Part shown: piece after piece, positions 28,366-31,128 of the stretch
Numbering within the stretch: position 1 is the stretch's first letter
How the letters are laid out: the number at the start of each line of letters is the position of its first letter
Sequence record: NC_047770.1
Source: Escherichia phage ESCO13
DNA length: 64,000 nt
Strand: one strand, 5' to 3'
The notes under the pieces: model-generated
What the model was told of the DNA's origin: nothing
Seen by the model: the letters and a program-made list of their open reading frames with translations, nothing else
The model's database searches: none
Position numbers and translations under genes: made by a program

Positions 28366-28432
28366 CAACGCCCCTTCTCTTCCTAAAATAAAATTTTATG
28401 AGGAAGTAGAAGATAATGAATCTAAAGACTAA
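28295..28432 (+). CDS. Small hypothetical protein (45 aa), alternative frame
   Basis: ATG at 28295 with GGAGGA SD; overlaps 28195 ORF in another frame; only one of the two may be real. Confidence 0.25.
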   Translation: MMTEKTWEEILVEAQPMEVKKIVNNAPSLPKIKFYEEVEDNESKD

Positions 28433-28808
28433 AACTGTATTAGGTTTTGTTTTAATTGTTGTTCTTATTCTTGCCGGAATGTTTGCTTATAACAAGATAC
28501 ATGAGTCTGGCTACAAAGATGGTGTTGCCTATCAAGCGCAATTATATCAAGCAGCCCAAGCAAAAGCAAAACAGGATTTTGATGTTCTTCAAAAAAGAGC
28601 AGATGAAGAAAGAGCATTATTAAATACCCAAATAAACAACTTGTCTAAAAACAATGCACAATTAAAAGCAGATTTAGAGAAGAAGAAACAAACGATCAAT
28701 GAGGATACAACGAATTATGCAAAAACTAATTCTGGCAGTATGTCTTGCTTTGCCCCTAATGATGACGGGTTGTTCATCATCAACAAAAGTTTCCCCAGTT
28801 CTTATTGA
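28416..28808 (+). CDS. Inner-membrane spanin (Rz-like)
   Basis: 130 aa; N-terminal TM helix then coiled-coil periplasmic domain; contains the start of the overlapping lipoprotein gene. Confidence 0.5.
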   Translation: MNLKTKTVLGFVLIVVLILAGMFAYNKIHESGYKDGVAYQAQLYQAAQAKAKQDFDVLQKRADEERALLNTQINNLSKNNAQLKADLEKKKQTINEDTTNYAKTNSGSMSCFAPNDDGLFIINKSFPSSY

Positions 28809-29043
28809 TGAGTGTAAGGCTGTAGCCATAGAAAAGGTTAAAGGTCCAGATTCGGATTTGATGGATAAAGTATCGACACCTGTGCCATACACTAAAAATC
28901 AAATTGCAAAAGGGGTTAGTAGATCTGAAGTTGTTAACAACCAAACTCAAAACAACGCTCTTTGGGAGCAAGATAGACGAAAGGTTTTAGGTTTACAAAC
29001 ATATATTAAAACACTGCAAGAAAAAGGTATTATTGCTGAATAA
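28699..29043 (+). CDS. Outer-membrane lipoprotein spanin (Rz1-like)
   Basis: Signal peptide with lipobox LMMTG-C; starts in +1 frame inside the Rz-like gene; possible start also at 28717. Confidence 0.5.
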   Translation: MRIQRIMQKLILAVCLALPLMMTGCSSSTKVSPVLIDECKAVAIEKVKGPDSDLMDKVSTPVPYTKNQIAKGVSRSEVVNNQTQNNALWEQDRRKVLGLQTYIKTLQEKGIIAE

Positions 29044-29052
29044 GGAGGGAAT

Positions 29053-31128
29053 GTGGCAAAGAAAAAGGCAGCAGGTAGTTTAGCTGGAGTAGATATTGAA
29101 GTAAAGGCTCAACCAGGTAAACAGACTCTTGCAATGGATTTAATGCCAGAAGTTATGATTTATGGTGGTGCCGCTGGATGTGTTTCTGCTGAAACGGAAT
29201 ATCTTACAAAAGATGGTTGGAAACAGATTAGTGAATATTCGGGAGAGGATATTTACCAATACAACCCTAAGAATAAGCGTTTAGAATTGGTAACACCTTA
29301 CTTTGTAGAATACGATTTAAATGGAGATAATCTATACAGAATAACAAATGGTGTAGGATTGTTCCAAGAACTTAGTATGGAACACCGTTTTGTATTCTAT
29401 AAGAAAAAGAAATCAAAGAAACATTTCGAGATTCTTGTAGGAGATCTTATTGCATTACAGCAAATAGGAAAACCCCTGCAAGGTTATGTAGAAAATCCAT
29501 TCGGTAAACGTGTTCCTTTTAACATACCTGGTAAAAAGAGCACTTACTTAAAAATACACGAGGTTATTTCAACAGATGATAAGAAATATTGTTTTGAGAC
29601 TCCAAGCAGCTATATTGTCTTTAGACGTGGCGATCACTGCTTCGTTACTGGGAATAGCGGCAAGTCTCGTCTGCTATTGCTGAAAGCTTTAAAATACGCC
29701 TACAAAGACCCTTTGTTTGGTGGAATACTTTTCCGTAAGAACACCACTGCTCACCGTAAACCAGGTGGTCTGTTTACAGAAGCAAAACGTTTGTATCTTC
29801 CTTTACAACCGCACGTAAAAGAAAGTACAATGGATATCATTTTTGAAGCCACTGGCGGCGGAACCCTCAAATTTGACCATTTGGAAAACGATAACGTAAC
29901 CGCAGAAACAAACCATCAGGGTACACAGTATTCAATGGTAGGTTTTGACGAGTTAACCCACTTCACACAGTATGAAATGCTCTATCTTCTGGGACGTATG
30001 CGTTCAGAATCAGAAACAAGCTTCATGTTGTGCACATGTAACCCCGATGCAGATAGTTGGGTTTTGAATTGGGTACTACCTTATCTCGATGAGGGCGGTT
30101 ATCCTAGAGAAGATATGTGTGGTAAACAAAAATATTTCATCATTGTTAACGATGAACCTGTTTTTGCTGACACACCTGAAGAACTGAAAGAAAAATATCC
30201 AGAAAACTGTTTCATGGAAAACCCTAATACAGGGGAGACAGTTGTTATTGAACCACAAACTTTCGTATTTATCGGTGGGACAATATTTGATAACCCAGAA
30301 TTGATTAGGCTTAACCCTAATTATTTAGCACAGCTTAAATCACAAACAGCAATCAAAAGAGCACAACTCTTGGACGGCTGTTGGTTTGCACGTATACAGA
30401 AAGAGTCTTTCTTCCAACGTGAATGGTTGCATAAGATATCTTATAAAGATGTTCCTAATAATCTTAAACTAATGCGAGCATGGGATAAAGCTGTTTCAGT
30501 TCCTACAGAAACTTATCGTTATCCAGACTATACAACATCTGTCAAAATGGGTAAAGACCAAGATGGTAATATCTACATCTTTGGTGACTATGATTATGAT
30601 GCTGTGGATGAGAAAAGTAAAATTTTCGGAAGGTTTCGAAGATTACCTGGGGAAAGGGATAACCTGATTCTAAATCAATGTAAGATTGATGGACCAGAAG
30701 TTACAGTAGTTCTTCCTAAAGACCCATCTGGTGCTGGGACAATAGAATATACAGAGTCTGCAAAGAAACTTATTCTAGAGGGTTTTGTTGTTAAACCAGA
30801 TGCTATGCCAGGCAACAAGAAAAAGCTTCAGCGTTTTATGCCTTTTAGTAGTGCGTGTCAAAACGGTTTTGTTTATATTGTTGAAGATTCTTTCCCTAAT
30901 GTGGAAACTTTAACCCACTTTTATAAAGAATTGGAATCTTTCAATGGTGAAAGATCTACAGCCACTATTAAAGATGACATTCCCGATGCTGCTGCTTCTT
31001 GTTTCAATACTCTGTCAAAAGAGAATACTTTCAAAGCAGTAGCTATCCCTGCAACAACAAATGCTCCTACAGGATACAGTAGAATGAACAGCGGATTTCA
31101 CCAACCGTATAGTGTCCGTAAAAGATAA
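29053..31128 (+). CDS. Terminase large subunit, interrupted by a mini-intein
   Basis: 691 aa; Walker A G-A-A-G / S-G-K-S split between residues 42 and 202 by a Cys...Asn insertion; position directly before portal. Confidence 0.8.
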   Translation: MAKKKAAGSLAGVDIEVKAQPGKQTLAMDLMPEVMIYGGAAGCVSAETEYLTKDGWKQISEYSGEDIYQYNPKNKRLELVTPYFVEYDLNGDNLYRITNGVGLFQELSMEHRFVFYKKKKSKKHFEILVGDLIALQQIGKPLQGYVENPFGKRVPFNIPGKKSTYLKIHEVISTDDKKYCFETPSSYIVFRRGDHCFVTGNSGKSRLLLLKALKYAYKDPLFGGILFRKNTTAHRKPGGLFTEAKRLYLPLQPHVKESTMDIIFEATGGGTLKFDHLENDNVTAETNHQGTQYSMVGFDELTHFTQYEMLYLLGRMRSESETSFMLCTCNPDADSWVLNWVLPYLDEGGYPREDMCGKQKYFIIVNDEPVFADTPEELKEKYPENCFMENPNTGETVVIEPQTFVFIGGTIFDNPELIRLNPNYLAQLKSQTAIKRAQLLDGCWFARIQKESFFQREWLHKISYKDVPNNLKLMRAWDKAVSVPTETYRYPDYTTSVKMGKDQDGNIYIFGDYDYDAVDEKSKIFGRFRRLPGERDNLILNQCKIDGPEVTVVLPKDPSGAGTIEYTESAKKLILEGFVVKPDAMPGNKKKLQRFMPFSSACQNGFVYIVEDSFPNVETLTHFYKELESFNGERSTATIKDDIPDAAASCFNTLSKENTFKAVAIPATTNAPTGYSRMNSGFHQPYSVRKR
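29179..29655 (+). other. Mini-intein (Hint domain, about 159 aa) inside the terminase P-loop
   Basis: Starts with Cys43 (CVSAETEYL...), S..H block near LSMEH, ends HCFVTGN followed by Ser; removal restores GAAGSGKS Walker A. Confidence 0.6.

Follow-up and report, generated by a model that had tools for sequence, protein, structure and literature searches.

A probable active mini-intein in the Walker A loop of the large terminase subunit of Escherichia phage ESCO13 and related coliphages

The interrupted terminase gene

The window analyzed here, a 64,000-nucleotide stretch of DNA from Escherichia phage ESCO13 (NC_047770.1), encodes a large terminase subunit (TerL) in which the Walker A loop (P-loop) is split by a 159-codon insert. 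The insert is very probably an active, self-excising mini-intein that lacks a homing endonuclease and is fixed in the TerL of phAPEC8/phi92-like coliphages (Stephanstirmvirinae).

In the program-made list of open reading frames (ORFs), the only ORF that spans the locus comprises 691 codons (Table 1). Its product matches the ATPase domain Terminase_6N of Pfam (PF03237; E=5e-17 and E=4e-19, well over the curated cutoff) and PHROG 979, terminase large subunit (E=9e-217); the latter alignment runs end to end because the members of PHROG 979 themselves contain the insert. The C-terminal RNaseH-like nuclease is detected weakly, with scores below the respective cutoffs (18.9 bits against 22.6 for PF17289 and 23.6 bits against 41.65 for TIGR01630). 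The host protein has the domain composition of a Terminase_6-type TerL. A PDB search with the spliced TerL sequence yields no sequence-detectable relative. Phapecoctavirus phages have annotated TerL genes with 100% identity to the window TerL; DNA identity to the phAPEC8-like Phapecoctavirus phages of E. coli is 99-100%, and the protein is ~87% identical to that of phi92-like Justusliebigvirus. The window represents a phAPEC8-like Phapecoctavirus.

An earlier note, made from the letters of this DNA alone, had described a 159-residue Cys-to-Asn block inside the P-loop, bounded by Cys43 and Asn201 of the precursor. Translation of 29179-29655 bears out both the block and the numbering: the 159 codons are free of stops, start with CVSAETEYLTKDGW, end in DHCFVTGN, and are flanked by ...PEVMIYGGAAG and SGKSRLLLLK. 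Removal of the block generates GAAGSGKS, i.e., a canonical GxxxxGK[ST] Walker A loop, and an in silico spliced TerL of 532 amino acids (aa) and 60.1 kDa. The residues involved in the splice junctions are all found, namely C1, S66-x-x-H69, N159 and Ser+1 (intein numbering). A penultimate His (position G6) and an Asp at position F4 are typical of class 1 inteins although not obligatory; the insert lacks both and contains G158 and C138 instead.

The insert also includes a Lys-rich loop, FYKKKKSKKH (residues 73-82, 29395-29424), which is encoded by the A-rich run AAGAAAAAGAAATCAAAGAAA. This loop is kept in TerL mini-inteins down to 55% identity and occupies the place of the homing endonuclease of larger relatives; possible roles are that of a leftover linker or of a contact to nucleic acid.

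Table 1. Features of the ESCO13 TerL gene, in window coordinates
Feature	Coordinates	Strand	Description
TerL precursor ORF	29053..31128	+	691 aa, 78.6 kDa; GTG start; stop codon included in the coordinates
N-extein	29053..29178	+	42 aa; its last residues, ...IYGGAAG, supply the opening half of Walker A (GGAAG, 29164-29178)
Predicted mini-intein	29179..29655	+	159 aa, 18.6 kDa, Cys1...Asn159; translation, AlphaFold2 model, Foldseek, profile match to 6zgq
Intein position 1, Cys1	29179..29181	+	Invariant in alignments; Cys in 198/200 and Pro in 2/200 family inteins
Block B region	29356..29397	+	Residues 60-73, GLFQELSMEHRFVF; S66 (B7), H69 (B10), R70 (B11), F71 (B12)
Block F region	29581..29628	+	Residues 135-150, KKYCFETPSSYIVFRR; Cys138 (29590-29592) at F4; RR motif
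Block G	29635..29655	+	Residues 153-159, HCFVTGN; T157 (G5), G158 (G6, penultimate), N159 (G7)
C-extein	29656..31125	+	490 aa; begins with Ser+1 (29656-29658); second half of Walker A, SGKS (29656-29667)

Evidence that the insert is an intein

Intein-free TerL proteins align on either side of the insert and contain an unbroken P-loop, in agreement with the prediction of the earlier note that excision restores GxxxxGKS. Erwinia phage M7 TerL reads ITLYGGAAGSGKT and Rhizobium phage N28_2 TerL reads IAIYGGSAGGGKT, both without interruption; the end of the N-extein corresponds to ITLYGGAAG and IAIYGGSAG, and the complete loops are YGGAAGSGKT and YGGSAGGGKT, respectively. The synthetic spliced junction is matched in one piece by TerL genes of Aeromonas phages. 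The Terminase_6N profile covers positions 1-214 in the spliced protein (69.6 bits) vs positions 8-214 in the precursor (62.7 bits), where the match begins at residue 202 (profile position 8), directly past the insert.

The AlphaFold2 model of the insert, built with 10 homologues, is one compact domain (mean pLDDT 92.7, pTM 0.84). In a Foldseek comparison with the PDB, all 50 matches listed are inteins, bacterial intein-like (BIL) domains or hedgehog autoprocessing domains, and the top one among them is 6zgq, the split intein AceL NrdHF-1-1 (E 8e-7, TM-score 0.67-0.70). The profile of the insert family independently matches 6zgq with E=1.4e-12 over the N-terminal part and E=2.5e-7 over positions 6-158. 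The Hint-domain hallmarks that had been pointed out from the sequence (Cys1, an S..H block, which is S66-M-E-H69, a terminal Asn, and Ser+1) are conserved and belong to a domain with the Hint fold. Hidden Markov models (HMMs) of the N- and C-terminal parts of the family, run against the six-frame translation of the 64-kb window, hit the TerL ORF alone (E 1.9e-34 and 9.6e-22; next-best E values, 0.56 and 0.07), and no further copies of the family were found there.

Searches with tblastn and profiles identify homologous inserts with C...(T/S/C)GN termini, followed by Ser, Thr or Cys, in a variety of unrelated proteins, where they occupy classic intein sites. These hosts include phage DNA polymerase, NrdA, RtcB (at the catalytic Cys), primase/helicase and other P-loop proteins, as well as PhoH, ThyX, ThyA and a metallophosphoesterase. 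Relatives with a length of 300-350 aa contain an extra LAGLIDADG-like segment of ~150-190 aa between blocks B and F, and a few of these weakly match Pfam Intein_splicing, LAGLIDADG_3 and TIGR01445. Because this segment is missing from the window element, the latter qualifies as a mini-intein, and it is indeed too small for a homing endonuclease, as the note had proposed. In metagenomic TerL mini-inteins with 55-63% identity to the window element, every catalytic residue is kept.

Detection of the relatives depends on the query. A word-indexed protein search with the insert alone retrieves only 5 close fragments, so that an alignment is needed as the query, and a single-sequence PDB search with the insert alone yields nothing significant. 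A match to a portal protein (9sza, E=0.053) and one to a WW domain (1o6w) are judged to reflect chance or low complexity and are superseded by the profile searches.

A large intein family with one characterized member

The family profile was built from 19 members. Among 1.84 billion cluster representatives, it matches 19,638 proteins (E<=1e-3), of which 15,282 pass E<=1e-10 and 5,090 pass E<=1e-30, part of the signal in these counts stemming from the endonuclease domain. The window element is one of this very large group of inteins from phages and metagenomes, in which the AceL NrdHF split intein is the only characterized member. Table 2 gives the residues at the key positions in 200 complete inteins parsed out of the best matches. 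The penultimate Gly, considered "slightly unusual" in the earlier note, is rather a near-invariant signature of the family, and the note overlooked the near-invariant Cys138 of block F that, together with Thr157 at G5, makes up the class 3 catalytic constellation. In the alignments, both Cys1 and Cys138 are invariant.

Table 2. Residues at key positions in 200 family inteins
Position	Residues
1	Cys 198/200, Pro 2/200
B7	Ser, Thr or Cys 199/200
B10	His 200/200
B11	Arg 105/200
B12	V/M/I/F/L; Phe71 in the window element
F4	Cys 198/200; never Asp
First Arg of the block F RR motif (R149 in the window element)	Arg 192/200
G5	Thr, Ser or Cys 196/200
G6	Gly 198/200
G7	Asn 200/200
+1	Ser 96, Cys 76, Thr 28

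The P-loop sub-site found in the window TerL, G/[ST]GK[ST] (the slash marks the insertion point or a splice junction), is occupied in 74 of the 200 inteins, in many different NTPases; another 30 are inserted at the G/CG site of RtcB, and 96 elsewhere. Two metagenomic members, P0050 (residues 39-360, G/PLSNDTEF...) and P0155 (residues 115-429, G/PLSGDTEY...), begin with Pro. Both are inserted at P-loop sites and retain Cys F4 and the (T/S)GN/[ST]GKS terminus; judging from these residues, both appear to be natural offshoots of the Cys1 family with class 3 character, and AceL NrdHF gives the same impression.

AceL NrdHF-1-1 (PDB 6zgq) is a split intein encoded on a phage-like contig of Antarctic origin, for which class 3 splicing has been proven by experiment (Hoffmann et al. 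2020, PMC7891396). It has Ala at position 1, S65/H68/R69/M70 in block B, and the terminus T144-G145-N146/S, without a penultimate His (PMC7891396). Its essential first nucleophile is Cys124 at F4, the modelled thiol of which lies 3.0 A from the scissile carbonyl; the crystal was obtained with a C124A construct. The G145H mutant is dead, T144A is 10-fold slower, and R69A is slow because this Arg stands in for the missing His in Asn cyclization (PMC7891396). In the HMMER alignment, Cys138 of the window element falls on residue 124 of 6zgq, S66/H69/R70/F71 on S65/H68/R69/M70 (SPNHRMIY), and T157-G158 on T144-G145, with the end of block G aligned to ...SVTG. Its alignment with G145 provides the penultimate Gly of the window element, a hallmark of the family, with a known structural basis.

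The two elements share the S-x-x-H-R motif in block B, Cys at F4, the T-G-N/S terminus, the absence of His at F13 and G6, and a hydrophobic residue instead of Trp at B12 (Met in AceL NrdHF and Phe in the window element). Both are mini-sized, 146 aa and 159 aa, respectively, and the only difference at a catalytic position is at position 1, Ala in AceL NrdHF and Cys in the window element. In AceL NrdHF, however, the two halves are separate in nature, on either side of a GIY-YIG gene, and the intein resides in the beta subunit of ribonucleotide reductase, in contrast to the contiguous, cis-splicing arrangement in the P-loop of TerL.

Alternative readings of the insert

The readings that compete with an intein, namely a native TerL subdomain, a decayed remnant and a BIL domain, are all very unlikely. 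BIL domains have no +1 nucleophile or lie in a variable host region, and they mainly catalyze cleavage; this candidate is ruled out by the presence of Ser+1 and by the location of the insert, as no motif of this essential ATPase is better conserved. A native subdomain, the alternative that the earlier note had proposed to examine in intein-free homologues, is ruled out by the fact that these homologues contain no equivalent segment, and the intein reading survives. A homing endonuclease domain, to which the word "endonuclease" in some GenBank annotations of TerL would point, is ruled out as well, given the short length of the insert and the missing LAGLIDADG-like segment.

It is highly improbable that the insert is a non-splicing remnant or a domesticated subdomain, such that the terminase either works with the insert in place or is non-functional. 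In Walker A NTPases, the loop must be contiguous for the P-loop to be functional, and an insert between two residues of GxxxxGK[ST] cannot be reconciled with such a loop. Although the absence of a homing endonuclease, the fixation in all relatives, with no intein-free allele of the clade that would show dispensability, and the lack of recognition by Pfam all fit a remnant, its catalytic residues are intact and retained in the 55-63% identical TerL copies, the intein-free homologues have nothing equivalent, the annotation of the related phages examined shows TerL as one gene, and omega (the ratio of nonsynonymous to synonymous substitution rates) is ~0.05.

Several observations weigh against the intein reading or against the chemistry proposed for it below. 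The omega values obtained by comparison with phage EmilieFrey (intein, 0.052; exteins, 0.056) point to purifying selection of equal strength on both parts, but they are approximate because synonymous sites are saturated (dS, the synonymous divergence, is 1.6-2.1). The insert sequence shows no match at E<=1 to the intein models of Pfam and NCBIfam (Intein_splicing/Hint, TIGR01445/TIGR01443), so that the Pfam check suggested by the note turned out negative; of the 19 relatives, only 2 have a match to PF14890 (E 0.0011 at best) and 5 have one to TIGR01445 (E 1.3e-4 at best). The identity between the window element and AceL NrdHF is only ~20%, and the mechanism is transferred by homology only. Furthermore, AceL NrdHF, with its Ala1, is uninformative on the role of Cys1 where this residue is present. 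Taken together with the anatomy, fold, homology, conservation and insertion site, which are direct observations, the insert probably is a real and active mini-intein.

Putative splicing mechanism and class

Because the Walker A loop of the precursor is broken as GAAG/intein/SGKS, unspliced TerL would be unable to bind ATP or to package DNA. We infer that the intein excises itself from the 78.6-kDa precursor, giving rise to a 60.1-kDa motor protein and the 18.6-kDa intein, and that the new peptide bond would join Gly42 to Ser202 in the junction peptide ...VMIYGGAAGSGKSR. His69 of block B, together with Ser66, would strain the N-terminal scissile bond Gly42-Cys43, at which a thioester would form; the N-extein would be passed to the hydroxyl of Ser+1 (Ser202); Asn159 (Asn201) would cyclize with the aid of Arg70, which would act in place of the penultimate His and for which Gly158 would leave room; and an O-to-N shift would rebuild the P-loop GAAGSGKS. 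Cys1 is the putative class 1 nucleophile, and Cys138, as part of a predicted Cys-His-Thr157 triad, would be an essential second thiol that serves as a relay or a branch point, in the manner of class 3 inteins.

The involvement of both near-invariant cysteines is our favoured working view. The need for Cys1, i.e., class 1 behaviour, is argued from the conservation of this residue in 99% of the members. The conservation of Cys F4 and Thr G5, the role of the equivalent Cys in AceL NrdHF, and the existence of Pro1 and Ala1 variants suggest that Cys138 is a competent and probably essential nucleophile, i.e., class 3 behaviour. Of the features that define class 3, the window element has Cys F4 (Cys138) and Thr G5 (T157); Phe71 replaces Trp at B12, and Cys occupies the position 1 that in class 3 is free of a nucleophile. 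AceL NrdHF, a proven class 3 intein, also departs at B12, with Met (PMC7891396). Since the N-terminal nucleophile is present, the element is not filed as class 3.

A purely canonical class 1 route is somewhat less likely than not. Under this scenario, Cys1 would form a linear thioester that Ser+1 attacks directly, and Cys138 would be a non-nucleophilic stand-in for the F4 Asp that positions or activates Ser+1. The presence of Cys1 in 198 of the 200 members, unexpected if this residue were dispensable, the class 1-like S/T-x-x-H in block B, the hydrophobic residue rather than Trp at B12, and the definition of class 3 by Hoffmann et al., which is operationally based on the absence of Cys1 (PMC7891396), speak for this route, but the complete absence of Asp at F4, where 198 of the 200 members have Cys, is not readily reconciled with it. 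Nor is the conservation of Thr at G5, which is described as a feature of class 3 only. Moreover, Cys124, the residue of AceL NrdHF that aligns with Cys138, has been proven to be an essential nucleophile and is located next to the scissile carbonyl (PMC7891396), and the two Pro1 members, in which Cys F4 is intact, indicate that this Cys is evidently able to carry the reaction in this scaffold.

The converse scenario, class 3 splicing despite the presence of Cys1, appears rather doubtful. Here, Cys138 would attack the N-terminal junction to form a block F branched thioester, and Cys1 would be chemically dispensable and kept for folding, redox sensing or the homing site. A dispensable residue would hardly remain Cys in 99% of the members over dozens of extein contexts, and the canonical class 3 structures, 6rix and 6bs8, rank under Prp8 inteins and BIL domains in the Foldseek output, so that the family is not near canonical class 3. 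Yet all class 3 residues other than Trp B12 and a nucleophile-free position 1 are present and aligned with those of AceL NrdHF, and Pro1 and Ala1 variants occur inside the family itself. In 2011, Tori and Perler reportedly found that inteins of the canonical class 3 (WCT) type with Ser1 or Cys1 splice by the class 3 route. Among 37 WCT inteins, 3 start with Ser or Cys (Tori et al., PMC2807308), and later papers on class 3 state that an N-terminal nucleophile is "not required" (PMC5222942); Ala1 is documented in AceL NrdHF (PMC7891396).

A conditional intein, in which the redox state gates splicing and hence packaging, for example through a reversible disulfide between Cys1 and Cys138 (or Cys154), is unlikely, albeit compatible with participation of both cysteines in splicing. 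[quoted passage not shown] The fixation of a homing-incompetent intein throughout the subfamily is compatible with a benefit without requiring one, and is equally well accounted for if an essential P-loop does not permit precise deletion. The title of one paper presents the intein of a mycobacterial DnaB helicase as a sensor of oxidative stress.

More tentatively, the entire clade of ~15,000 clusters at 50% identity (E<=1e-10) might combine Cys1 with the class 3 Cys-His-Thr triad, with both thiols obligatory, either as an acyl relay from Cys1 via Cys138 to Ser+1 or as a redox-gated pair that would time the maturation of the packaging motor. Such a clade could be a reservoir for repeated origins of class-3-type inteins via the loss of Cys1, with AceL NrdHF (Ala1) and the two Pro1 members as possible examples. 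If correct, this hypothesis would supply a natural intermediate between class 1 and class 3, in the easily handled coliphages phi92 and phAPEC8. Such an intermediate was considered implausible for a divergent evolution from class 1 to class 3 by Beyer et al. (PMC7664689).

Comparison with other terminase and class 3 inteins

Inteins in phage terminases, including those in P-loops, are already established (PMC5050341, PMC4760082, PMC2677866). The mycobacteriophage TerL inteins (Kelley et al. 2016, PMC5050341) and the prophage Terminase_6 inteins (Novikova et al. 2016, PMC4760082) are inserted, like the window element, in the ATPase domain of the large terminase, the Walker A P-loop included. 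These inteins splice in reporter constructs, and splicing has been argued to be necessary for the formation of the active site and for pentamer assembly (PMC5050341, PMC4760082). The P-loop sites of TerL1-a and TerL1-b are in Terminase_1-type TerL, at or adjoining GK/T, whereas the window element is in a Terminase_6-type TerL at G/SGKS, two residues upstream of the "classic" GK/T site of mycobacteriophage TerL1-a (PMC5050341); the TerL6 intein, in turn, is located in the C-motif rather than the P-loop. The mycobacteriophage and prophage inteins are recognizable as class 1 or canonical class 3 (WCT), some of them with active endonucleases, and their hosts are Actinobacteria as opposed to the enterobacteria in the case of the window phage.

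The canonical class 3 inteins (MP-Be DnaB, Msm DnaBi1, 6bs8, and MchDnaB1, 6rix) resemble the window element in having Cys F4, Thr G5, His B10 and Ser/Thr at +1, in their phage origin and in their preference for P-loop helicases. Unlike the window element, they lack an N-terminal nucleophile and possess Trp B12 and a penultimate His, and in the Foldseek ranking they are far below 6zgq, the Prp8 inteins and the BIL domains. The metagenomic split intein AceL-TerL (Dassa et al. 2009, PMC2677866), compared here by its description only, also comes from an environmental phage and interrupts a myovirus gp17-like large terminase, but it is naturally split at an atypical site and accompanied by a free-standing endonuclease gene.

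Distribution and evolution

A query of the phage collection with the spliced junction found no intein-free allele in the more than 130 matching phage records; in every Stephanstirmvirinae record that matches both halves of the query, the halves are 477 nt apart. Given the lack of an intein-free allele among close relatives, no empty homing site is shown in the same clade. The GC content at third codon positions (GC3) is close in the intein (0.277) and in the extein (0.298). The absence of an endonuclease, the extein-like GC3 and the lack of intein-free alleles are in line with a mini-intein that is old, fixed and inherited vertically, and that an essential motif cannot lose imprecisely.

Other variants occur at the same G/SGKS site of TerL: a 241-aa version with extra middle sequence in phage Av-05 (Vequintavirinae), a 332-aa version with an endonuclease in a metagenomic TerL-like protein, and a 146-aa mini version in Vibrio phage PWH3a-P1. 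The annotated "terminase large subunit" coding sequence of Av-05 (KM190144, 2911-4041) encompasses just 376 aa and ends shortly past Walker B, so this gene is probably either mis-annotated or interrupted again downstream. In Escherichia phage nepoznato (MN850571, 301-3345), a close relative, the TerL gene contains the same mini-intein and, in addition, an insertion of ~1 kb that includes an ORF for an HNH homing endonuclease and splits TerL into two annotated coding sequences. This insertion, located at a site ~1.24 kb into the window TerL (near 30290) and absent from the window, probably is either a group I intron or a free-standing gene for a homing endonuclease.

The genomic context of TerL, as deduced from homology to phage EmilieFrey, consists of a portal gene downstream and a spanin pair upstream. 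The two overlapping upstream ORFs, 28416-28808 and 28699-29043 (both on the + strand), correspond to the annotated i-spanin and o-spanin of EmilieFrey, respectively, and the second one contains a lipobox-like motif, LMMTGC. TerL proteins of the same kind are also present in records labelled as Campylobacter jejuni phages. The TerL of MG065650 ("Campylobacter phage B15") is 100% identical to that of E. coli Stephanstirmvirinae, MG065645 ("A145") shows ~87% protein identity, and MG065656 ("C3") and others are further such records; these are likely mislabelled hosts or contaminant coliphages.

Annotation and implications

A full-text search for "intein" combined with the names of the genus, the subfamily and the phages found no description of this TerL intein. 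More than 130 GenBank phage records carry the element, including those of phi92, a structural model phage, phAPEC8 and therapeutic candidates, and no TerL feature listed under the matches names an intein; the labels are "terminase large subunit", "hypothetical protein" or "large terminase with (N-terminal) endonuclease (domain)". Table S5 of the BASEL study (PMC8594841, supplement file 5) gives 0 inteins for EmilieFrey, although the TerL of this phage contains the element, likely because comparative detection is blind to an element that is present in all relatives. According to a 2024 paper (PMC11162368), coliphages have no reported inteins, while the TerL of KMB37, a phage described in that same paper, is annotated as "large terminase with endonuclease".

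Since TerL is a standard phylogenetic marker, alignments and trees can be distorted by an unrecognized 477-nt insert derived from a mobile element. A family of thousands of members escapes the standard domain libraries, so that phage intein censuses built on these libraries are undercounts. A 159-aa cis-splicing element native to E. coli phages, which combines Cys1 with the class 3 triad and a Gly-Asn end, would be a handy system to study the acyl-carrier cysteine and the evolution of class 3. For the phages themselves, maturation of the packaging ATPase should hinge on a post-translational step that would be open to inhibition or regulation.

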